NCBI GenBank assembly: GCA_015065105.1
Contig: SVQZ01000005.1
Coordinates: 35,412-99,411 of the forward strand
Origin: Oscillospiraceae bacterium
GTDB lineage: Bacteria; Bacillota; Clostridia; Oscillospirales; CAG-272
Direction: 5' to 3'
Length of the DNA stretch: 64,000 nt
A model generated the notes under the pieces. That model saw only the letters and a program-made list of their open reading frames with translations. It made no database searches and was not told where the DNA came from. Below are positions 17,369 to 28,105 of this stretch, one piece after another. Position numbers and translations under genes: made by a program. The number at the start of each line of letters is the position of its first letter. The stretch's first letter is position 1.

Positions 17369-17526
17369 TTCACTGACAAATATAAACAAATTTCTCCTTT
17401 ACAAAGGTGTATTATAAATCTACAAGGACGGCAAAAATCGCCATCCTTGCCAAACAGCACGCCGGGTACACCGAATCCCGTCCGTACCCAAAGCGAAAAA
17501 AACCAAGCAAAAACAAAGGAGAAAAA

Positions 17527-20500
17527 ATGAAAAGAATCACAAAAAGAAGCTTAAGCATGATATTGTCTATACTGATGATATTCCACCTCTTTCCCTACGG
17601 AGCATCGGGAAATAAATCAACGAAAAGCATCTCTTCATATGACCCCGTACCCGAAATTACGGATAATAACGTCATCGAAGTCCAACAAGAAGAACCTCCC
17701 TACGTTTTATACGAAGAAGAAAATTTAAGAGAAGAAAGGGTAAAGCATTACAGAATGAGCAACGGAAGCTTCGCGGCAGTAGAGTTTCCCTATTCTGTAC
17801 ATTATGAAAATGAGGATAAAAGTTATTCAGAGATAGACAATACCCTCATAAAGGGAGAAGACGGGTACAGTAACCGGGAAAACGACGTCAACTACACCTT
17901 CAGTACTGATACAGATACAAACGAAATTCTTGACATAAGCTACGGCAGTTATGAGCTTGAGATAGATTTTACCGGAGTAACGTCGGAATTGCCGCTTTCC
18001 GATAATACATCAGACCTTGAAACAAAAAGCAAAAGCTCGAATAAAAGCATTGAGATAATCAACCCCGAAGACAGAGTAACAGAAGAAAAGAACGGGACCG
18101 TCTCTGCCTTTACCACACGCGAAGGGCCTCTTAATATTGAAAAGCCCTCTGTCGAGGACGTACTAAGCAATCAAATTAAAAACGAGTCCTCGATAAAATA
18201 TATAAATATCACAAAGGGTATAGACTTAAGATATGATATATCAGGCAACGAGTTAAAGGAATACATAATATTAAAGGAGAAGCCCGAAGGTAATATCTTC
18301 AGTTTTAATATGAAGCTCGACGGACTTATACCTGTATTAAATAACGATAAGAGCGTTTCGATATGCGATAAGGATTTCAACAGGATATTTATGATCCCCG
18401 CGCCCTTTATGACCGATGCTTCGGGCGTAGTGTCATATGACTGCGAATACATAATTGAAGAAAGCGGCGAGGGCATAAGCTTTAAGATATCGGCAAACAA
18501 GGAATGGCTTGATTCCGAAGACCGAAGCTATCCCGTTATGATAGACCCTGCATTGAACGTTACGGGCGAGGACAAAACAAATGCAATGACCACGTCCTAT
18601 TATGCAGCCGGTGCCAATACCGTGAATACTGCCATGCAGGAGATATACATGGGGTACGATTCATGGTATGATGGTGAATATATAGGATATTTAAAGGTAA
18701 ATACATTACCCGCGATCCCTTACGGCGCATCCCCTGTAAAGGCATACGTTTATCTCGGCCACTATGCCTATGACGGCGAAAGCATGGAGAGCTTGAACGT
18801 GTCCGCAAGAGCGGTCACGGGAAACACATGGTACACTCAGTATTCTAATACCGTCCTTGACTATACCGTATTATCCGATGATACGGTGGGAGAATTTGTG
18901 AGCTGGGATATCTCGGATGCGGCAAAGGGATGGTATATATTCAACAGTGATCCCGAGGAAGACAACGCTCTTGAAAACAAGGGCATAGTATTCGTTTCGG
19001 AGCATGACCTTAATGACAGTTATAATGCGAAAGCTACCCTGTACGGATTTCATAACCTTAATTTTAACGAAGGCTGTAAGCCCAAATTCGTCGTGTACTA
19101 TCAGAACATGATAGGCATGGAGCAAAGATACAGCAGCAACACTCAGAATATCGGAAGAGCGGGAACGGGAAATATACGAGCATACGACGCAGACCTTACC
19201 TTACTGAGAAATGACGCATCCTTTTCAAGCACGGCAATGTCATTTACCGTAAGCCATATATATAACACAAAATACCATAAAAATCATTTCACCTCAAACG
19301 GCACGGTCCTCAACACCAAAAACTATGACCAGATGTTCGTGGGCAAGGGATGGAAGCTAAATCTGCAGCAGACCGTGGTTGAAAAGCAGATAACCGATAT
19401 AAACGGAAACGCCCAAAGCTATCTTATATATACCGACGAAGACGGAACCGAGCATTATTTCAACAAGGATCCCGACAATAATACTCGATATATAGACGAA
19501 GAAGGTATGGATCTGACCGCCTTCAGCGAAAACGGCGAATGGATAATAAAAAGCGAAAAGGACGTTAGGATGTATTTCTGTAACGGCTACCTGTATAAGA
19601 TAGAGGATGCCAACGGGAACTACGTAGAAATATATTACGGCGATTCCGCGCAGAATACCGCAGGAACCGAGCACAAGCCTGCGGAAAACAGAAACAGAAT
19701 ACTTGAAATAAAGCAGACAGCGGCAGGCGGTACAACAAAAAGTATAGCCCGTTTCAGCTATGCGTCAGACAACTTCCTGTATTCGGTAACCGATATCGCA
19801 GGAAGAAGAACCACCATAGAATATACAGGCATAGGCCAGATAGACTATTTTAAGGACTGTGACGGTGTAAGGAGTAAGTATATCTATGATTCCCAAACGT
19901 CTGCGGGTAAGCTCATTTCCGCCTATGACAGCGGATCGGGTTACGGAATTGACTACGCATATAAAGGACTTTCGGTAGTCGCCTTTAATGAGTTTTGCTC
20001 AAATCATGACAACAACTGCAATCCCGTAAACAAAACAACGGGTGCATCCTATTGGTATAACACATCGGGAGATAAGGTAACGTATTTCAGGTATTCAGGT
20101 GCGGACAGAACGCTAAATACCGCAGACGATATAGTAACCACCTATCTTTTCGATGACTATGCAAGAACGGTAAACTGCTACAGCGCAAATACGAAGATAA
20201 CCGACGGTACGCAAGCGTTTTCGCTTTACGGAACAGGTGCGGCGGCATACACCCCCACAAGCATATCCGCCCCCGAAAAGAACAACAGAATAAGCGCAGA
20301 GACCTCCAGCGGCAGAGTGGCGGTAAATCTGCTCATGAATCCGAGCGCCGAGGGTAACGGCTCATATTGGCAGCTGCAAAACGGCGGAAGCTTGAATTCG
20401 GTCCTTGAAAACGTAAGAAGCGGTGAAAAATCGATAAAGCTCAAGGGCACGGGCGCTTATGCCTGCCAGACAAGACAGATAAAAAGCGCGGGCAAACATA

Positions 20501-23500
20501 CAGCATCGGCATACCTAAGGGTAATGGGAGCGGAAAATGAAATTCCCGAAGTATATCTTTACGTCTCCGATCAACAGGGTAATCTCACACAAAGCAGAAC
20601 GATACGGGAAAGCACCTCAAACGGTCAATGGGAACGCTTAAGCGTTACCTTCGATGCACAGGCGAACAAGAATTACGGAATATATATTAAAACCAACACC
20701 CCTGATGCAACGGTATATGCCGACGACCTCCAGCTTGAAGCGGGAGATGGCGCAAGCCGTCCCGGCTTACTTTCAAACGGCGGCTTTGAGCATTCGGATG
20801 ATAAATGGACGCTTGCTTCAGGCGTTGGTACGGTAAGTACAGATAAATATATGCCCGGTTCGCAATGCAGCTACAAGCTGACGGCAGGTGCAGGTACACA
20901 GTCTCAGATAACTCAGACCACAGCCGTTAATTCAGCAAATTCAGCTGAGACCTTTGTGTTGAGCGGCTGGGCATGGGCGGATTCGATACCCGTAAGAGAA
21001 GGAAACGGAGATGAAAGCAAGCTTGAATCAAAATTCAAGCTCTTCGCCAAGGTGAGCTATACCGATACAAGTATAGGCGACTCCTGGTACAGAGCAGATT
21101 TTAACCCTGATATACGAAACGAATGGCAGTTTTTAAGTCTTATGATAGTACCGAAGCATGATGCCGCGATAAGCAGTATAACAGTAGGAGTATGCTATGC
21201 AAATAATAACGGCAGCGCATATCTTGATAACCTCAGCCTTATCCGCGAGGACGTTCAGACCTACAGCTATGACGAGGAGGGCAACCTTATTCAGGCGGGC
21301 TCATCGGCAAGCGAGGAAAAGGCAAGCTACAGCTATGACGGTGCAGATCTCATCAGCGCCGCCATGCCGGGAAGCGGAACGTGTAACTATACATATAAAC
21401 AAACGGGTAATACGCATTTAGCAGAAACCGTTACCTGTGACGATCTCAAAATGTCATTGGAATACAGTGCGGCGGGAACAAACACGCTATCGACCCTTGA
21501 AAGCACCTCAAATACAAGCGGCAAAAAGATATGCTCAAGCGCAAGCTACAGTGCCGATGGGGACCACGTAAGCTACAGCGAAGATGCAAACGGTATCAGC
21601 GCAAGCTATAGCTATGATAACAAAAATCAGCTTTCAAGCTCTGCCGTTCAAAGCTCGGAGACCTTAAGTAATGGTGACGTCACAACGAATTACACCTATG
21701 ACAGCATAGGCAGAAGCAAGACCACGTATATTTCGGGAAAAATATCCCTTGACTACAGCTACACCGACGGTATGCTCACCGGCATCACAAGGGGCGGATA
21801 TATCCCGGGAAACAGCACAAAACAGAGCCAGAGCTACAGCTTTGTTTACGATGAATGGGGCAATACCGCACAGACCCGTCTCGGTGATGATACGATGCTT
21901 GCAAGCTACGAATATGCACCGAACAACGGAAATCTTATCAAGATGACCTACGGCAACGGTGCGTATATAGAATACGAGTACGATAACCTTGACAGAATCG
22001 TTAAAGTATCGTATAATGGTATCGAAAGATGTAGATATTCCTTTAACGGCGACGGTGCTTTGTATAAGGTAACCGAAGGAACAAAGAGCCATTACTATAA
22101 CTATGACGGCATAGGACGTCTTGTAAGCCTTGTGACCTATGAAAACGGTACGGTTACCGATTATCAGTCCTTTGGTTACGATGAACACGGACGCACCTCC
22201 TCCGTAACCGAAAAATTCGGCTGTAACGAGGTAAAGGACAGCTATACATATAACGAAAGCAACGGTCTTGTGACCTCTGTTACACAGCAGTATCATGCGG
22301 GCTACAAAAACTCAACGAACACCTTCAGCTACAGCTATGACCATTTAAAGCGTGCCGATTCAACCACCGTTGCCCATGACGGCAAGAGCTATAGTGTTAA
22401 CTACAGATACGCAAATAATCTTAAGGATTCTGCATATACTTCGAATTTAATAAACAGAAAGAGCTACGGAACAAGTGTTTATGAAAGCGATGCCTATAAA
22501 TTCGATTACGTATATGACAGGGGCGGAAATATCAAGACCGCAACCGTAACGAGCAAGTATGACAGCAATTACGTATATACCGTAAGATACGGCTATGACG
22601 AGCAGAATCAGCTTGTAAGCGAGCGCTGTGCGGCAACGAACAGAGCCTACGTATATGAATATGATACCTACGGAAATATCCGCAGTAAAAAGACATATAC
22701 CTACGGCAACTATGCAGATCCGGAGGATATAGCGGCAAACTGTACTCTGTTATCCACCGACGTCTATGAATATGACGATTACGAATGGTTCGATCTTTTA
22801 ACCGAGTACAATAACGTACCCTTCAGCCATGATATCATAGGTAATCCGTTAACGTATTACAATGGAAAGAACTATACCTTCACCTGGCAGAACGGACGTC
22901 AGATGGCAACTGTTTCGGTAAATGGTACTAATTTGTCCTTTGAGTATGATATAGACGGACTTCGTACCAAGAAGACTGTACAAAACGGTGAAACCTATAA
23001 TTACTATTATTCGGGCAATAAGCTTCATGCCATGACCTGGGAGAACGGCACAAAGATGCTGAGTTTTCTTTATGACTCAAGCGGAGCACCCTACAGCATG
23101 GTATATTGCTATACCGAAAGCGGAGTAAAGTATTCATCCTCCTACTATTACGTAACAAACCTACAGGGTGACGTTATAGCCCTCATGAACGCAAATCACG
23201 AAATAGTTGCCGAATACCTTTACGACGCCTGGGGTAATATCCTTTCGGTAACAAATGCAAACGGAACAGACCTATCCGGCAATGCAACCCATATCGCAAA
23301 CCTTAACCCCTTACGCTACAGAGGTTACGTTTACGATAACGAGACAGGGTTCTACTATCTTCAGAGTAGGTATTATGATCCTGTGATTGGGCGATTTATT
23401 AACCTTGACGGATTCATTTCTACCGATACCGGATTCCTTGGTCATAATATGTTTGCGTACTGTAACAATAATTCGGTGATGTTTAGTGATCATAGTGGGT

Positions 23501-23979
23501 GTCTTTCTATTGCTCTAAATTCTGAAGATATAAAAACTCTAATCGAGGGTTTAGTAGCTGGTATAAGTGCTGCTGTTGCTGATGGACCGTCTTTTGTTGC
23601 TGATATTGTCGGAGCAGGTATATTTTTTGTTGCTGGAGTTAAAGTTGTATCAAATGTTAAATCTCGTGCTGAAGAGGAAACAGAAGAAAGAGAAAAAATT
23701 TCGGATTCTGTTTCCAATAACAAATCAAACGAACCGATAATATTTCCTGTTGACCCAAATCTATTTTGTCCAAGAGGTTTGATAAAAGTACCTAGAGAAG
23801 GTAGTAAAAACGGAAAATTAATTAGTTGGATGAGTCCGGTAACGAATGTTGAAGTTTTTCGGTGGGATGAAAATACTAATTTCTCAAATGGTCCTCATTA
23901 TCATATCTACGGCAGCGGCCATTATGCACCTGGAACTAATGTGCCAGAACCATATGCAACATTATATTTTTCTGAATAA
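17527..23979 (+). CDS. Rhs/YD-repeat polymorphic toxin precursor (WapA-like): Sec signal peptide, tandem CBM-like modules, YD-repeat shell, Rhs core, variable C-terminal tip 1
   Basis: ORF is 17407..23979. Preferred start is the ATG at 17527, with AGGAG 5 nt upstream, giving the signal peptide MKRITKRSLSMILSILMIFHLFPYGASG. Many YD-type repeats are present (YSYDEEGNLI, YTYDSIGR, YEYDNLDRIV, YNYDGIGRLV, YGYDEQNQLV, YEYDTYGNI). The core ends NPLRYRGYVYDNETGFYYLQSRYYDPVIGRFINLD...NNSVMFSDHSG and is followed by an unrelated 159-aa tail. Confidence 0.9.
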   Translation: MKRITKRSLSMILSILMIFHLFPYGASGNKSTKSISSYDPVPEITDNNVIEVQQEEPPYVLYEEENLREERVKHYRMSNGSFAAVEFPYSVHYENEDKSYSEIDNTLIKGEDGYSNRENDVNYTFSTDTDTNEILDISYGSYELEIDFTGVTSELPLSDNTSDLETKSKSSNKSIEIINPEDRVTEEKNGTVSAFTTREGPLNIEKPSVEDVLSNQIKNESSIKYINITKGIDLRYDISGNELKEYIILKEKPEGNIFSFNMKLDGLIPVLNNDKSVSICDKDFNRIFMIPAPFMTDASGVVSYDCEYIIEESGEGISFKISANKEWLDSEDRSYPVMIDPALNVTGEDKTNAMTTSYYAAGANTVNTAMQEIYMGYDSWYDGEYIGYLKVNTLPAIPYGASPVKAYVYLGHYAYDGESMESLNVSARAVTGNTWYTQYSNTVLDYTVLSDDTVGEFVSWDISDAAKGWYIFNSDPEEDNALENKGIVFVSEHDLNDSYNAKATLYGFHNLNFNEGCKPKFVVYYQNMIGMEQRYSSNTQNIGRAGTGNIRAYDADLTLLRNDASFSSTAMSFTVSHIYNTKYHKNHFTSNGTVLNTKNYDQMFVGKGWKLNLQQTVVEKQITDINGNAQSYLIYTDEDGTEHYFNKDPDNNTRYIDEEGMDLTAFSENGEWIIKSEKDVRMYFCNGYLYKIEDANGNYVEIYYGDSAQNTAGTEHKPAENRNRILEIKQTAAGGTTKSIARFSYASDNFLYSVTDIAGRRTTIEYTGIGQIDYFKDCDGVRSKYIYDSQTSAGKLISAYDSGSGYGIDYAYKGLSVVAFNEFCSNHDNNCNPVNKTTGASYWYNTSGDKVTYFRYSGADRTLNTADDIVTTYLFDDYARTVNCYSANTKITDGTQAFSLYGTGAAAYTPTSISAPEKNNRISAETSSGRVAVNLLMNPSAEGNGSYWQLQNGGSLNSVLENVRSGEKSIKLKGTGAYACQTRQIKSAGKHTASAYLRVMGAENEIPEVYLYVSDQQGNLTQSRTIRESTSNGQWERLSVTFDAQANKNYGIYIKTNTPDATVYADDLQLEAGDGASRPGLLSNGGFEHSDDKWTLASGVGTVSTDKYMPGSQCSYKLTAGAGTQSQITQTTAVNSANSAETFVLSGWAWADSIPVREGNGDESKLESKFKLFAKVSYTDTSIGDSWYRADFNPDIRNEWQFLSLMIVPKHDAAISSITVGVCYANNNGSAYLDNLSLIREDVQTYSYDEEGNLIQAGSSASEEKASYSYDGADLISAAMPGSGTCNYTYKQTGNTHLAETVTCDDLKMSLEYSAAGTNTLSTLESTSNTSGKKICSSASYSADGDHVSYSEDANGISASYSYDNKNQLSSSAVQSSETLSNGDVTTNYTYDSIGRSKTTYISGKISLDYSYTDGMLTGITRGGYIPGNSTKQSQSYSFVYDEWGNTAQTRLGDDTMLASYEYAPNNGNLIKMTYGNGAYIEYEYDNLDRIVKVSYNGIERCRYSFNGDGALYKVTEGTKSHYYNYDGIGRLVSLVTYENGTVTDYQSFGYDEHGRTSSVTEKFGCNEVKDSYTYNESNGLVTSVTQQYHAGYKNSTNTFSYSYDHLKRADSTTVAHDGKSYSVNYRYANNLKDSAYTSNLINRKSYGTSVYESDAYKFDYVYDRGGNIKTATVTSKYDSNYVYTVRYGYDEQNQLVSERCAATNRAYVYEYDTYGNIRSKKTYTYGNYADPEDIAANCTLLSTDVYEYDDYEWFDLLTEYNNVPFSHDIIGNPLTYYNGKNYTFTWQNGRQMATVSVNGTNLSFEYDIDGLRTKKTVQNGETYNYYYSGNKLHAMTWENGTKMLSFLYDSSGAPYSMVYCYTESGVKYSSSYYYVTNLQGDVIALMNANHEIVAEYLYDAWGNILSVTNANGTDLSGNATHIANLNPLRYRGYVYDNETGFYYLQSRYYDPVIGRFINLDGFISTDTGFLGHNMFAYCNNNSVMFSDHSGCLSIALNSEDIKTLIEGLVAGISAAVADGPSFVADIVGAGIFFVAGVKVVSNVKSRAEEETEEREKISDSVSNNKSNEPIIFPVDPNLFCPRGLIKVPREGSKNGKLISWMSPVTNVEVFRWDENTNFSNGPHYHIYGSGHYAPGTNVPEPYATLYFSE
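23035..23403 (+). repeat. Rhs-core homology block, copy 1 (inside the full-length gene)
   Basis: 369 nt, in-frame direct repeat of 24497..24865. My hand count found 41 mismatches (about 89% identity), with identical runs of about 45-55 nt. Confidence 0.9.
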
Positions 23980-23998
23980 TACAAGGAACTTTTAAATT

Positions 23999-24403
23999 AT
24001 GATCAAATATAATATATCAAAAATCGAGAAACTAAAAGAGTTTATATACTACAGCAATATACATGATGCTATAGTAAAATACAGTAAATATGATTTAAAA
24101 AACAATTGTTTCACAATTAAAGTCGCTAATTATTCGTTTAATATACAATATACTTTGAAATTTTATAATATTGAATATTTATTATTTACCAACACAGCTT
24201 CAAATAACTCTAATAATATTAACACTTTAGTTGTAAGCAAATCTAACGATAATAATGAAGTTCTAAATGAACTATCTCTGAAATTTTCACAAAATAATTT
24301 TTATTTTATATTTGAAATGTTCTTTGATAAAGAAATTCATATTATATGCGAATCGATTGGTATAATAACATCGCAACCCAGACTAACTGTAGAAAGTCAA
24401 TAG
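23999..24403 (+). CDS. Candidate cognate immunity protein for tip 1 (cytosolic; no signal peptide or transmembrane segment)
   Basis: 134 aa. Starts 20 nt after the rhs stop, on the same strand. Very AT-rich and rich in Asn, Ile, Lys and Tyr. Position is typical of Rhs immunity genes. No family recognised. Confidence 0.55.
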   Translation: MIKYNISKIEKLKEFIYYSNIHDAIVKYSKYDLKNNCFTIKVANYSFNIQYTLKFYNIEYLLFTNTASNNSNNINTLVVSKSNDNNEVLNELSLKFSQNNFYFIFEMFFDKEIHIICESIGIITSQPRLTVESQ

Positions 24404-24448
24404 AAAAAGTTTAAAAGTTTAAAGAAATGCGTTATCCTTGACAGATTC

Positions 24449-25519
24449 TTGAATTTGTCAAGGGTAGTGCAAATCTTAGTGGTTGGAAAGACCTTGACTT
24501 GGGAAAACGGCGCAAAAATGCTGAGCTTTCTTTATGACTCAAGCGGTAATCCCTACAGCATGGTATATTGCTATACCGAAAACTCAGTAAAGTATTCATC
24601 CTCCTACTATTACGTAACAAACCTGCAGGGCGACGTTGTTGCTCTCATGAATGCAAATCACGAAATAGTTGCCGAATACCTTTACGACGCCTGGGGTAAT
24701 ATTCTTTCGGTAACAAATGCAAGCGGAACAGACCTATCCGGTAATGCAAACCATATCGCAAACCTTAACCCCTTACGCTACAGAGGTTACGTTTACGATA
24801 ACGAGACGGGATTCTATTATGTATCCAGCCGTTATTACGATCCTGAGATCGGTAGATTTATAAATGCAGATAATACAATTTCCGGTATCAACGGACCGAT
24901 GTTGGGATATAACCAGTTTGCCTACAGTTTCAATAATCCTGTAAATATGGATGATGAATCCGGTAATTGGCCCAAATGGGTGAAAAATACTGTTAAATGG
25001 GTGGCTAAGAATGTTGTTAAACCAGTTGTAAAAACTGTCAAAAAGACTCTTTCCAAGGTTGATGCTACATATTCGCGAGGTATCAATGTTAGTGGGACAC
25101 CAAGTGCTTTTATTTTCAATCTTCAGGCAGGTATATCCATAGACACAAAAGGGAATGTTGCAATACAGGGGTCTGCCGGAGGAGGCATTACGGGTGGAGT
25201 ACCCAGTGCATCTATCACGGCATATCAAAGTGTAACCAATGCGCCAAGTATAGCCAAACTTGAGGACTCCGGTTATCAAATTGGTGGTTCTATAGGAGTC
25301 CCTGTATATGAGGTTCCACTGGCTGTAGGGGGTGACTTCAACATAATTCCAGATAGCGCCCTAAACACAACATATTATGGTGCAACAAGTAATGTGGGGA
25401 TTGGAACGCCTGGTGGAGAGTTTCATGTTGAATGGGGTGAAACTGCCACATGGAATGCCACTCGGTTTAACATATTTGATGTGGCTGAAGACGTTTACAT
25501 TAAGATTATGGAGTGGTAA
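24449..25519 (+). CDS. Orphan Rhs C-terminal module 1: about 123 codons of Rhs core plus alternative toxin tip 2
   Basis: The frame opens at a TTG with no Shine-Dalgarno. Residues TWENGAKMLSFLYDSSGNPYSMVYCYTE...NPLRYRGYVYDNETGFYYVSSRYYDPEIGRFINAD...NNPVNMDDESG parallel the end of the main gene. A different 185-aa tail follows. Confidence 0.75.
   Translation: MNLSRVVQILVVGKTLTWENGAKMLSFLYDSSGNPYSMVYCYTENSVKYSSSYYYVTNLQGDVVALMNANHEIVAEYLYDAWGNILSVTNASGTDLSGNANHIANLNPLRYRGYVYDNETGFYYVSSRYYDPEIGRFINADNTISGINGPMLGYNQFAYSFNNPVNMDDESGNWPKWVKNTVKWVAKNVVKPVVKTVKKTLSKVDATYSRGINVSGTPSAFIFNLQAGISIDTKGNVAIQGSAGGGITGGVPSASITAYQSVTNAPSIAKLEDSGYQIGGSIGVPVYEVPLAVGGDFNIIPDSALNTTYYGATSNVGIGTPGGEFHVEWGETATWNATRFNIFDVAEDVYIKIMEW
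24497..24865 (+). repeat. Rhs-core homology block, copy 2 (orphan 1)
   Basis: Direct repeat of 23035..23403 at an offset of 1,462 nt. Confidence 0.9.
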
Positions 25520-25521
25520 AG

Positions 25522-26235
25522 ATGAAGTTGATTCGACATATTTTCACAATCATATTAACACTACTTTTGCTAGTTTTTGGAGGGGTAGAGGTGTTGGCTA
25601 TGAATACAGGTTTTTCTACTGAATCGTTGCCAGAAGATGATATGAATACATTGCTCAAAAATGTAAATATATCTATGTTGACAGACGAGCCACCAAAGAA
25701 AACAATTGAGTGTTTTGCTGTTAATGAAGATGGAGTGATCGCTATTGGCTGTAATAGTTCTGAAAACAAAGTAGTATGTATTTATACAAGTGACGGCGTT
25801 TTTCAATATGGTTACAGTTTTAAATGTAGTGGTAATTTCGGCATTGAATTTGATAAAAGTGTATTAAATATTTATCTTGTTCGTAGTGATATTGCAATTG
25901 CTGTTAATTCTGTTGGAGAAGTAGAGAGTATCCTTAAAATTCAAAACACATCCGAAAACAACTCTTATTGGAATGATTGCGTTTTTTCAACCAGACGAAA
26001 AATTGGAGATACCGAATATTTCCTTAAAAATGATATGGGTATTTTAAATGTATTTGCATCATCATATTCTCAATTAATCATCACAAATAAATACGGTGAA
26101 GAAAGTATTATATATGATGTAAATTCGGCTCAATTTTCAAATATGGTAGTAGTTGTTGGTGGGGTTATTGTATTTATTTGTCTTGTTGTAGCAGTTGTTA
26201 TTTGGCAGTTCATTAAGCTAAAGCGCAATGCTTGA
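25522..26235 (+). CDS. Candidate immunity protein for tip 2; extracytoplasmic and membrane-tethered
   Basis: ATG at 25522 with GGAG 8 nt upstream (a GTG at 25513 is also possible). It overlaps the end of orphan 1. N-terminal signal peptide MKLIRHIFTIILTLLLLVFGGVEVLA. C-terminal transmembrane anchor VVVVGGVIVFICLVVAVVIWQF followed by KLKRNA. Confidence 0.55.
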   Translation: MKLIRHIFTIILTLLLLVFGGVEVLAMNTGFSTESLPEDDMNTLLKNVNISMLTDEPPKKTIECFAVNEDGVIAIGCNSSENKVVCIYTSDGVFQYGYSFKCSGNFGIEFDKSVLNIYLVRSDIAIAVNSVGEVESILKIQNTSENNSYWNDCVFSTRRKIGDTEYFLKNDMGILNVFASSYSQLIITNKYGEESIIYDVNSAQFSNMVVVVGGVIVFICLVVAVVIWQFIKLKRNA

Positions 26236-26290
26236 ACATTTTTAGCACCATCCCAGCAAGCATCGCCTTTTGGGGACAAAAGGCAGTTTG

Positions 26291-26446
26291 TTGGGAGAAT
26301 CCCAAGCCCTTAAAGGTTTCAGGAATATTCCTGACAAGTCTGCGTTTGGGTGACCAAACGCGATGTTTACGGTACATAACAGTTTTCTTTTTTCGGCAAG
26401 TAACCGACCGAAAAATAATGACCCGGAGGGATTATCCCCTCCGGGT
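26291..26446. other. Cluster of five short perfect hairpins in the spacer between cassettes 2 and 3
   Basis: ttggga-gaa-tcccaa (26291-26305). tcaggaat/attcctga (26319-26334). gcgtttgg-GTGA-ccaaacgc (26342-26361, GNRA-type loop). tttttcgg...ccgaaaaa (about 26389-26415). acccggaggg-attatc-ccctccgggt (26421-26446). No convincing ORF. Confidence 0.35.
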
Positions 26447-26509
26447 AAATAGCAGAACCCAGCCGAAGTAATATTCTATTATCTGCAGAGCAGATATTAT
26501 GATCCTGCG

Positions 26510-27211
26510 GTGGGTAGGTTTGTCAGTGCGGATTCTATTTTTATTACAAGTTCGTTTTTAGGTTATAATTTATTTTCATACTGTGAAAACACACCTGTTA
26601 CTTCTATAGATTCAAACGGTTATTGTAAAAAAATCCTTTTTATAAAATTCGATTGTCATAAGGTTACCTGTAAAACAAGCAAAAACTATAAGTCAACAAG
26701 AAAAAAAGCAGCTGTACTATATGATGGTAGATCGAGTGGTTCGTTTTTTGGTTTAATAGATGGTCAAGGATTTGAAAAACAAGGAGAGTCATTAGTTGAG
26801 GAATTACAATCATCTTACGAGGTTGATGCTATTTCATTTGATACTTTAGGGGGGGTTGTAGATGGTTGGAATTCTCTAAATGACACATATGACCGTGTAT
26901 ATATATTAGCACATGGAGATCCGGGTAATTTGTGGTGTGAAGGTGAAAATCTCGGTGTTGATCAAAATTCTTCCTATTCAATTTGGGATTTAAGTGCAAT
27001 AGATACTAAAAATATATATTTGTATTCTTGTAATGGAGCTACTCTAAATCAAGACGGGATCAGTTTAGCGAATGCTTTCTCGGATATTACAGGTGCTTGT
27101 GTTACCGCTGTTTCTAATGGTTCGGTTAATTACAATATTTTAACAAATAAACCATATGCAGACGGCGGGGTATGGGTATCTCGAACACGTAAGAACTATA
27201 TTTTTAAATAG
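26510..27211 (+). CDS. Orphan Rhs C-terminal module 2: minimal core remnant plus toxin tip 3 with a caspase/CHAT-like His-Cys dyad
   Basis: The ORF track starts at GTG 26510, with no Shine-Dalgarno. The in-frame upstream sequence from 26474 reads FYYLQSRYYDPAVGRFVSAD, which is the end of the Rhs core. It continues ...CENTPVTSIDSNG and then a 195-aa tail containing VYILAHGDPG (His codon 26912-26914) and IYLYSCNGAT (Cys codon 27029-27031). Confidence 0.65.
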   Translation: MGRFVSADSIFITSSFLGYNLFSYCENTPVTSIDSNGYCKKILFIKFDCHKVTCKTSKNYKSTRKKAAVLYDGRSSGSFFGLIDGQGFEKQGESLVEELQSSYEVDAISFDTLGGVVDGWNSLNDTYDRVYILAHGDPGNLWCEGENLGVDQNSSYSIWDLSAIDTKNIYLYSCNGATLNQDGISLANAFSDITGACVTAVSNGSVNYNILTNKPYADGGVWVSRTRKNYIFK

Positions 27212-27223
27212 GTGGTATATTTT

Positions 27224-27826
27224 ATGAATATATTGAAGTCAATATTAGTACTAATTGCGTTAAGTATGCTTGTTGTTATTTCTTTTAAAACAACAAAACA
27301 TCTAATACATAATATCAGATCAAATCGCCGTTACATAAAATCTATTATCTGTACAGTCATTGTGAGCATATTAACCGTATATGCTATCTTATCCTACGGT
27401 ATATATATTTACCCCTTTGAAAAAAATGTCGAATTGGTTCTTGTGAAAGAATATACACTCCCAAAGCAGGATAATTATGAAATATTATACGGAAAAAAAT
27501 GGTGCGGTGTTTATAAAGCTGATGGTTCCAAACCGGCTTCGTTTATATTTAAGCCTGAAAAATATGATTATGACTTTGAAAATTTAGAGTTTGATTTAGA
27601 CAATTATACATATATTGTCACATATGCTCAAAAAGCTGAAAGCTTGTCATATAATGTTTGGGATACAATCAAAAAACCGGTAAATACCGGGGCAAAAGAA
27701 GGACATATTGTTTTCAAAGAAGAGTATAACGAAAGAAAGGTATATATTTATAAAATAAAAGATAATATACGAATCGATTGTAACATGAATGATCTAAGTA
27801 ATTTACAATTATATAATGCAAAATAA
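27224..27826 (+). CDS. Candidate immunity protein for tip 3; two N-terminal transmembrane segments plus a soluble domain
   Basis: ATG at 27224 with AGGTGG 9 nt upstream (the ORF track GTG at 27212 is less likely). Transmembrane segments ILKSILVLIALSMLVVISF and IICTVIVSILTVYAILSYGIYIY. AT-rich. Directly follows orphan 2. Confidence 0.5.
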   Translation: MNILKSILVLIALSMLVVISFKTTKHLIHNIRSNRRYIKSIICTVIVSILTVYAILSYGIYIYPFEKNVELVLVKEYTLPKQDNYEILYGKKWCGVYKADGSKPASFIFKPEKYDYDFENLEFDLDNYTYIVTYAQKAESLSYNVWDTIKKPVNTGAKEGHIVFKEEYNERKVYIYKIKDNIRIDCNMNDLSNLQLYNAK

Positions 27827-28024
27827 CTAATTAGACAGAGGGCGCTGTCCTTCTTATGAAACAAACGTAAAACAAGAAATTGCTATCTGTCTTAAAATCA
27901 AACAGCAAACGGGCGAGAACGTTGAAGAAGACTATGTTCTGAAATTCGTTAAATCCTACGATTCTACAGAGCATGATGAAGCGAAGACTACATAGGACAC
28001 TTATGCTTGTTAATGAAAACGACA

Positions 28025-28050
28025 GCAAGGCGGTCTCCCGCCTTGCTTTT
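28025..28050 (+). terminator. Intrinsic terminator closing the plus-strand cassette array
   Basis: gcaaggcgg-tctc-ccgccttgc followed by TTTTT. Confidence 0.65.
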
Positions 28051-28059
28051 TCGTATAAC

Positions 28060-28105
28060 AAAAAACGGTGCAAGTCGGATCTTTCGACTTGCACCGTCCC
28101 TTTTT
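28060..28105. terminator. Bidirectional terminator (mainly for the minus-strand SLH gene)
   Basis: 13-bp stem acggtgcaagtcg / cgacttgcaccgt, flanked by AAAAAA on the left and CCCTTTTT on the right. Confidence 0.7.

Follow-up and report, generated by a model that had tools for sequence, protein, structure and literature searches.

The Rhs locus and its direct repeat

The DNA considered here (the window, a 64,000-nt stretch of contig SVQZ01000005.1 from an Oscillospiraceae bacterium, to which all positions refer unless stated otherwise) contains a chromosomal Rhs/YD-repeat polymorphic-toxin locus of an uncultured gut Clostridia bacterium. Those homologues whose source is named are annotated as belonging to metagenome-assembled genomes of Clostridiales, Eubacteriales or Lachnospiraceae. 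The layout is the classical one, in which a full-length rhs gene is followed by orphan toxin/immunity modules. The main gene (17527-23979, plus strand) encodes a full-length Rhs/YD-repeat toxin of 2150 aa with a CBM_4_9 module, a YD shell and a C-terminal toxin domain, tip 1. The first orphan reading frame downstream (orphan 1; 24449-25519, plus strand) is a real coding remnant from 24492 on and carries a different toxin, tip 2, from about 24960. An earlier note on this DNA had described a direct repeat of the Rhs core shared by these two genes and had called it a ready substrate for switching toxin tips. It is highly probable that the locus consists of an Rhs main gene with spare cassettes, that the repeat is core sequence left on tip 2, and that recombination can switch the tips.

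The reading frame of the main gene spans 17407-23979, and the start is most likely the ATG at 17527, which has AAAGGAG just upstream; identical 2150-aa calls are found in public data (P0266, P0306). The gene matches PF05593 RHS_repeat in Pfam (E 4.6e-15) and the CBM_4_9 module (E 8.6e-07), and PF25023 TEN_YD-shell is precomputed for the 2150-aa protein. Its N-terminus, MKRITKRSLSMILSILMIFHLFPYGASG, resembles a signal peptide when the sequence is read by eye. The protein has no Pfam match to PAAR, and no wall-binding repeats were detected in it. The TIGR03696 Rhs-associated core domain lies at 23221-23499 (plus strand; residues 1939-2031 counted from the GTG start), followed by the tip 1 toxin domain at 23500-23976 (plus strand; G+C about 35%). 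RHS repeats and TIGR03696 are matched by the main gene and by both orphans of the array, with TIGR03696 scores of 65.1 bits for the main gene, 65.3 for orphan 1 and 24.8 for a partial match in orphan 2 (cut-off 32.5). The nearest full-length homologue of the main protein is 50% identical; apart from one contig described below (L013), no close relative of this shell lineage was found with another tip.

The remaining genes of the array follow on the plus strand. Putative immunity gene 1 (23999-24403; 134 aa; G+C 21-23%) adjoins tip 1 in every other contig as well, and the spacer between it and orphan 1 contains a 20-bp stem-loop (24428-24471, plus strand; -30.3 kcal/mol, z -5.3). Orphan 1 is followed by putative immunity gene 2 (25522-26235; 237 aa), which has a hydrophobic segment at each end and its own GGAG and ATG, and then by a conserved element of about 127 nt (26249-26376, strand not assigned) in the spacer before orphan 2. 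Orphan 2 (26474-27211) consists of a 48-nt core remnant, 79% identical to the main gene, and a toxin matching DUF4347, and is followed by putative immunity gene 3 (27224-27826; 200 aa). Two strong terminator-like hairpins (28024-28097, strand not assigned) close the array. The core has a G+C content of 41-50%, and the tips and immunity genes one of 21-36%. The sequences found at the position of the boundary motif, NNNSVMFSDHSG, NNPVNMDDESG and ENTPVTSIDSNG, are related to the PxxxxDPxGL motif of Enterobacteriaceae and are non-canonical.

The repeat itself consists of copy 1 in the 3' core of the main gene (23030-23403, plus strand) and copy 2 in the core remnant that heads orphan 1 (24492-24865, plus strand). 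Over this full extent of 374 nt there are 41 mismatches. The earlier note had counted 41 by hand in a collinear, in-frame repeat of 369 nt; the computed alignment of that interval has 40 (89.2% identity), and the homology starts 5 nt earlier. Both copies start on a codon boundary and are in frame and collinear, and their translations of 123 residues differ by nine substitutions and end in ...RYYDPxIGRFIN. Identity is 83% at 23030-23064 (35 nt), 94.0% at 23065-23345 (281 nt, slightly longer than the 264-nt central block proposed from the hand count) and 69% at 23346-23403 (58 nt), and the longest identical runs are 57, 50, 39 and 31 nt. A repeat search covering 17-30 kb of the window returned only two families of direct repeats, each with an offset of 1,462 nt. 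The first (D1) pairs 23030-23329 with 24492-24791 at 92% identity, and the second (D2) pairs 23350-23397 with 24812-24859 at 71% and has a third copy at 26474-26521 (79%). Chance similarity of the two copies was rejected, because identity at the same offset falls to the chance level of 20-40% in the flanks, against 89.2% inside the repeat.

The homology ends at GRFIN (residue 1999) and TIGR03696 continues to residue 2031. Thus about 32 core-domain residues (23404-23499) lie beyond the repeat and have diverged between the copies, as does the toxin that follows; the sharp stop seen by the earlier note, which put the diverged core at about 35 residues, is borne out. Many contigs of the species break in or near the 3' core, and one might suspect that the repeat arose by mis-assembly or from a collapsed or expanded tandem duplication. 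This explanation can be rejected outright: the copies are 89% identical and not 100%, the tips and immunity genes that follow them are mutually unrelated, and independent assemblies in ENA, JGI and NCBI data show the same order, with an identity of 99-100%. About 20 contigs from these three sources carry orphan 1, and the nine that were compared with the window, from at least nine other samples, have an identical order and are 99.2-100% identical to it.

Mosaic origin of the repeat and exchange of tips between strains

Comparison with related loci reveals that the repeat is a mosaic. About 310 nt of copy 2 (24492-24801) belong to the lineage of the locus's own core and are 92-94% identical to the main gene, and the last 60 nt or so (24802-24865) belong to the tip-2 lineage seen in the loci L002 and L003. 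L002, a syntenic locus from another organism, is 88% identical to the window at 24767-26270, which takes in the last part of the repeat together with tip 2 and immunity gene 2, and has nothing in common with the window upstream of this match. In a five-way alignment, orphan 1 resembles the main gene of the window alone at 24492-24801, unlike L002 or L003. Compared with the main gene in 40-nt windows, orphan 1 is 74% identical in the first (24488-24521) and 88-100% identical from 24522 on. At 24802-24841 its identity is 93% with the orphans of L002 and L003 and 70% with the main gene. The mosaic, with its breakpoint at about 24802, argues for an old crossover that joined tip 2 to this core in the conserved GFYY...RYYDP region, near the YYDP..GRF motif. 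The repeat would then be the stretch of core that tip 2 retained when its module lost, or never gained, the terminal position in the main gene.

Both the repeat and the cassette behind it are under purifying selection. Codon differences inside the repeat are synonymous in 22 cases and non-synonymous in 11, with dN/dS between 0.14 and 0.21. Between the window and L002, two lineages in which the module stands as an orphan, the dN/dS of the tip 2 toxin is 0.23 and that of immunity gene 2 is 0.17. The low value for an orphaned tip 2 argues that the spare toxin has been kept functional.

Two sister contigs make it evident that recombination inside the core has exchanged tips in this species. The first, L013 (JGI 3300024303), is collinear with the window from 7527, matches it without divergence over some 14 kb, and shows no differences from 16000 to about 21500 except for a 2-nt deletion at 20989-20990. 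After about 21500 there are 5-22 differences per 250 nt (2-9%) up to 23250, and more on to 23482, beyond which L013 carries an unrelated toxin and then an 89-aa gene. This pattern is the footprint expected of recombination in which the last 2 kb of the core were replaced along with the tip. The second contig, L014 (ERZ27248436), has an extra cassette made up of an orphan-1-like core remnant, a toxin that contains an HExxH motif and a gene of 142 aa. The tip-1 module follows, in L014 as an orphan with a 1.33-kb core remnant, and after it come immunity gene 1 and orphan 1. This module is identical to the window at 22950-24550 and diverges toward its 5' edge at 22071, and a crossover between the shell and a tip-1 orphan of the L014 type would give exactly the main gene of the window.

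Several further differences among related contigs were recorded. The CC missing from L013 at 20989-20990 (about 13470 in L013 coordinates) splits the main gene into frames of 1161 and 1001 aa, and two contigs have a truncated product; the deletion may be a sequencing error, or else the delivery gene has truly been inactivated. In L012 (Logan SRR7031252), tip 2 and immunity gene 2 are 98.9% identical to those of the window, the upstream junction lies at 24833, and far less of the core remains. L018 (4564-6505) has more cassettes after immunity gene 3, namely an orphan of 323 aa, a gene with ankyrin repeats and the beginning of a further orphan, which are not present in the window strain. In L014, an N-terminal helix of the tip-2 type is fused to the different toxin with the HExxH motif.

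Tip switching and competing explanations

The arrangement is closely comparable to that of Salmonella Typhimurium LT2, in which a full-length rhs gene, together with its immunity gene, is likewise followed by a 5'-truncated rhs-CT orphan with its own immunity gene, and main gene and orphan share an in-frame core repeat. In Salmonella, recombination through 522 bp of 95% identity moves the orphan tip to the main shell; it was proposed to follow a duplication by which the main immunity gene is retained, and the recombinants outcompete their ancestor (Koskiniemi et al. 2014, PMC3967940). The present locus differs in the length and identity of the repeat (374 nt at 89%, with a 310-nt block at 92-94%), in having two orphans rather than one, and in its Gram-positive host with a putative Sec signal peptide, as against delivery by a type VI secretion system. 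The recombination also differs in kind of evidence, being seen here as differences between strains and there by experiment. Orphan arrays of the cdiA-CT/cdiI and rhs-CT/rhsI type in E. coli, Dickeya and other bacteria (Poole et al. 2011, PMC3150448) are similar in having tandem toxin/immunity cassettes downstream of the delivery gene, with toxin fragments that keep the tip-start motif but lack initiation signals and immunity genes that are expressed. They differ in phylum and secretion route, and in a motif that reads PxxxxDPxGL or VENN there and ...YYDPxxGRF followed by N-N-x-V-x-x-x-D-x-x-G here.

The third point of comparison is with WapA-type toxins of Gram-positive bacteria (B. subtilis, and S. 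suis, whose WapA locus has an orphan; PMC12704120). These too are proteins with a length of some 2,000 aa or above, a YD shell, a C-terminal polymorphic toxin and an adjoining immunity gene; they have a signal peptide, to which a signal-peptide-like segment corresponds in the window. The S. suis locus also has a truncated orphan (CT2) with an incomplete core and no signal peptide. The protein in the window differs in having CBM_4_9 in place of detectable wall-binding repeats, and its identity to any named relative is low.

Orphan 1 has the makeup of an orphan module: it is an rhs fragment that has lost its 5' part, lies downstream of the main gene with the same orientation and keeps in-frame 3' core homology, and its toxin fragment lacks initiation signals while its immunity gene has its own. 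As the earlier note had stated, no credible Shine-Dalgarno sequence precedes any in-frame start of orphan 1, whereas the main gene and immunity gene 2 each have one. Three gene callers placed the start at three different positions (TTG 24449, GTG 24467 and TTG 24494), and the 20-bp stem-loop at 24428-24471, which is not followed by a run of T, covers the first two. Orphan 1 therefore looks silent, as far as its sequence can be read. It was considered whether it might instead be expressed alone as an intracellular toxin paired with immunity gene 2, in the manner of a toxin-antitoxin system. Such a role is reported for a Salmonella rhs orphan (PMC7043789), and a weak candidate start, AAGGG...GTG at 24479, exists in orphan 1. 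This is quite improbable for the window, given the lack of a canonical Shine-Dalgarno sequence or start, the three discordant calls, and the position of the candidate starts in or beside a hairpin of -30 kcal/mol. The promoter signal also does not rise above chance (36 sites against 32 expected), and homologous orphan remnants elsewhere range from 210 to 621 aa with no conserved N-terminus. As for the stem-loop region, a spacer akin to it (83.6% identity) lies ahead of cassette Y in L014, and the tip-1 orphan of L014 is preceded by a different hairpin.

The way in which such a locus would operate can be outlined from these features. The main gene would give rise to a Sec-exported shell bearing tip 1, and the array would be transcribed by read-through from the main promoter. 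From the main gene to 28.0 kb no canonical terminator was listed, the only plus-strand sites being weak stems of 5 to 8 pairs, and Rfam gave no credible match in 23.0-28.5 kb. The immunity genes would be translated from their own ribosome-binding sites, and orphan toxin 1 would be left untranslated. RecA-type recombination between the core copies could then place tip 2 on the shell with deletion of 1,462 nt, the fusion and the figure being those that the earlier note had correctly given. Switching would probably be rare, and would probably need a prior duplication so that immunity gene 1 is kept. For this particular pair of copies the mechanism is plausible.

Several observations weigh against switching between these two copies. 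The homologous stretch is short, differs at 6-8% of its positions and has no identical run longer than 57 nt. Short, diverged homology lowers recombination rates considerably. With an identity of 89-94%, the repeat is both shorter and more diverged than its Salmonella counterpart, and its description as a ready substrate was optimistic. About 310 nt of it are of the same lineage. Simple deletion would also remove immunity gene 1 and expose the recombinant to killing by its siblings, a cost that the earlier note had overlooked in a proposal that is otherwise correct on the anatomy and indirectly supported by the exchange of tips seen in L013 and L014. No fusion of the main gene to tip 2 was found among the roughly 20 contigs that carry orphan 1, and a collection of 5.8 billion protein clusters holds no frame longer than 356 aa with tip 2 at more than 84% identity. 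The missing fusion is weak evidence, since rare recombinant subpopulations are invisible in consensus assemblies. The distribution of the tip-2 family points the same way. Among the 150 cluster representatives in the matches listed (451 in all at E up to 0.001), 145 are shorter than 900 aa and thus orphans or fragments, which fits equally well with cassettes that are kept for immunity only.

Judged on these 150 listed matches, the tip-2 toxin family (24944-25519 in the window) therefore occurs almost wholly in the orphan position. Full-length carriers exist but are rare: five of the 150 exceed 900 aa and two exceed 2,000 aa, and toxins of the family are found on full-length Rhs proteins elsewhere (P0166, 2265 aa; P0221, 2247 aa). 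About 10 of the listed representatives are calls of roughly 190 aa that start within a few residues of the M in ...PVNMDDESG. Exact-pattern scans for tip 2 in metagenome contigs and for the shell in genome contigs gave no match, the species or these records evidently lying outside those collections, and a protein-guided search of genome contigs found only relatives of at most 76% identity. In another organism (L003-L006, 5505-12435), tip-2-family orphans of 571 aa have no full-length Rhs gene within 10 kb upstream. The orphans of this island adjoin a fragment of DUF4368, a domain presumably found at the C-terminal end of large serine recombinases.

The cassette of orphan 1 may be kept mainly for immunity gene 2, which has its own Shine-Dalgarno sequence and ATG. 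In a stronger form of this idea, the cassettes are maintained because immunity genes 2 and 3 protect against the toxins of neighbors, and the toxin fragment and the repeat are an inert scar with no role in recombination. The possession of start signals by the immunity genes and not by the toxin fragments is what this explanation predicts, as are the stronger constraint on immunity gene 2 (dN/dS 0.17) and the preponderance of orphans among the listed tip-2 matches, and the same case has been argued for CDI and Rhs orphans (Poole et al. 2011). Less easily accommodated are the intact tip-2 frame, which has been under purifying selection as an orphan in two lineages (dN/dS 0.23), and the movement of tips between main and orphan positions in sister strains. 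An immunity reservoir of this kind is a possibility of some weight, though somewhat unlikely as the whole explanation, and it is compatible with the interpretation of the array as a main gene with spare cassettes whose tips can be switched by recombination.

Tip 1, tip 2 and the three immunity genes match no Pfam or NCBIfam family, the sole family match being DUF4347 for tip 3, and no sequence relative of solved structure was found. A confident AlphaFold model of tip 2 based on 30 homologues (pLDDT 85) has a long lysine-rich helix followed by eight long beta-strands (24866-25516). Its best matches in the Protein Data Bank are weak and are to the Vap proteins of Rhodococcus equi, which are eight-stranded barrels (E 1e-3; TM 0.5 normalized to the target). 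Considering the hydrophobic ends of immunity protein 2, it is possible that tip 2 acts at the membrane or envelope.

The locus sets no new type; it is ordinary for specialists in polymorphic toxins and leaves the current view of Rhs systems unchanged. It does extend the main/orphan architecture to a lineage of uncultured gut Clostridia whose nearest full-length relative is 50% identical. Here metagenome contigs alone reveal the process, in that strains otherwise identical base for base differ by a replaced 3' core and tip. The locus is also a practical marker for strain-level antagonism, and is suited to measuring rates of tip switching in a gut commensal.

A conserved 127-nt element between cassettes

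The one item at this locus that could add something new is the 127-nt element at 26249-26376. Inverted repeats of 16 nt form its termini, and between them lie four hairpins and, at the center, a 16-bp palindrome, TCAGGAAT|ATTCCTGA. The ends of the consensus, TACCAGCAAGCATCGC...GCGATGCTTGCTGGTA, form a perfect inverted repeat, and the right end is degenerate in the window copy. Copies are also present in L002 (12007-12129), in L003 (8165-8294, 9213-9329 and 12436-12566) and in L021-L073. An exact 28-mer of the element occurs in 53 species-representative genomes from several host animals, labelled Oscillospiraceae, Acutalibacteraceae, Faecousia, Faecalimonas or unclassified Clostridia, and the copies are nearly identical across these 53 species. 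Rhs shell or core sequences were found in 45 of the 53 stretches, with one to three copies of the element per array.

The orientation of the element varies in an unusual way. The flank CATAACAG... always lies downstream of the element relative to the Rhs genes, and the inner part has the direction of the array in 20 loci and the opposite direction in 13; no locus is discordant. The window and L002/L003 have opposite orientations beside homologous immunity genes. Inverted repeats thus bound a segment that is found in both orientations relative to fixed flanks, as in an inverton; the two orientations are seen between genomes, not inside one population. Half-elements, split at the central palindrome, occur in some loci, and in L066 the right half comes first and the left half 3.1 kb after it, the order that would result if a circle with a complete site had integrated. 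An inverton would have a dedicated invertase nearby; the 10 window open reading frames tested include no recombinase, and a large serine recombinase is nearby in only four of the 53 loci.

These properties raise the suggestion that the element is a DNA recombination or switch site specific to the Rhs arrays of gut Clostridia, a reading that is rather doubtful at present. If it is true, site-specific recombination of the integron or inverton kind would move or switch cassettes in these arrays, besides homologous recombination in the core. No paper was found that links invertible elements with Rhs loci or that matches the element. The nearest analogy is with the rAID-1 arrays of Bacteroidales (Ross et al. 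2019, bioRxiv 10.1101/471110), which are also arrays of orphan immunity genes and toxin fragments with skewed G+C and repetitive intergenic sequences that have been likened to integron sites. The rAID-1 arrays differ in that a XerD-type recombinase is conserved in them and in that each gene has a repeat, against the one to three elements per array here.

Other kinds of element were considered. Both ends abut TA, which suggested a miniature inverted-repeat transposable element with TA duplication; this candidate was set aside, no empty site having been found and only one to three copies being present per array. Signals inside the element are limited to a weak match to TTGTCA-17-TTTAAG and a weak terminator-like hairpin, and the element has no Rfam match. 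RNAalifold identified no compensatory pairs. A five-helix structure is 96% paired, against 95.7% in shuffles, with eight cells changed on both sides, and the copies are too alike for the matter of an RNA structure to be decided.

The surroundings of the element also show some conservation. The leader between the element and orphan 2 (26376-26473) is conserved and contains hairpins at 26389-26415 and 26421-26446, the second of which reads as a minus-strand terminator. A motif, GGTACATAACAG, occurs after the element and again after a G+C-rich hairpin in several species (L027, L029, L040). L002 (9760-17825) contains a 67-nt G+C-rich hairpin element, CGCGGCGGGGC-N23-GCCCCGCCGCG, whose copies are 76-94% alike and precede five successive features, namely four orphan fragments and one further open reading frame downstream.

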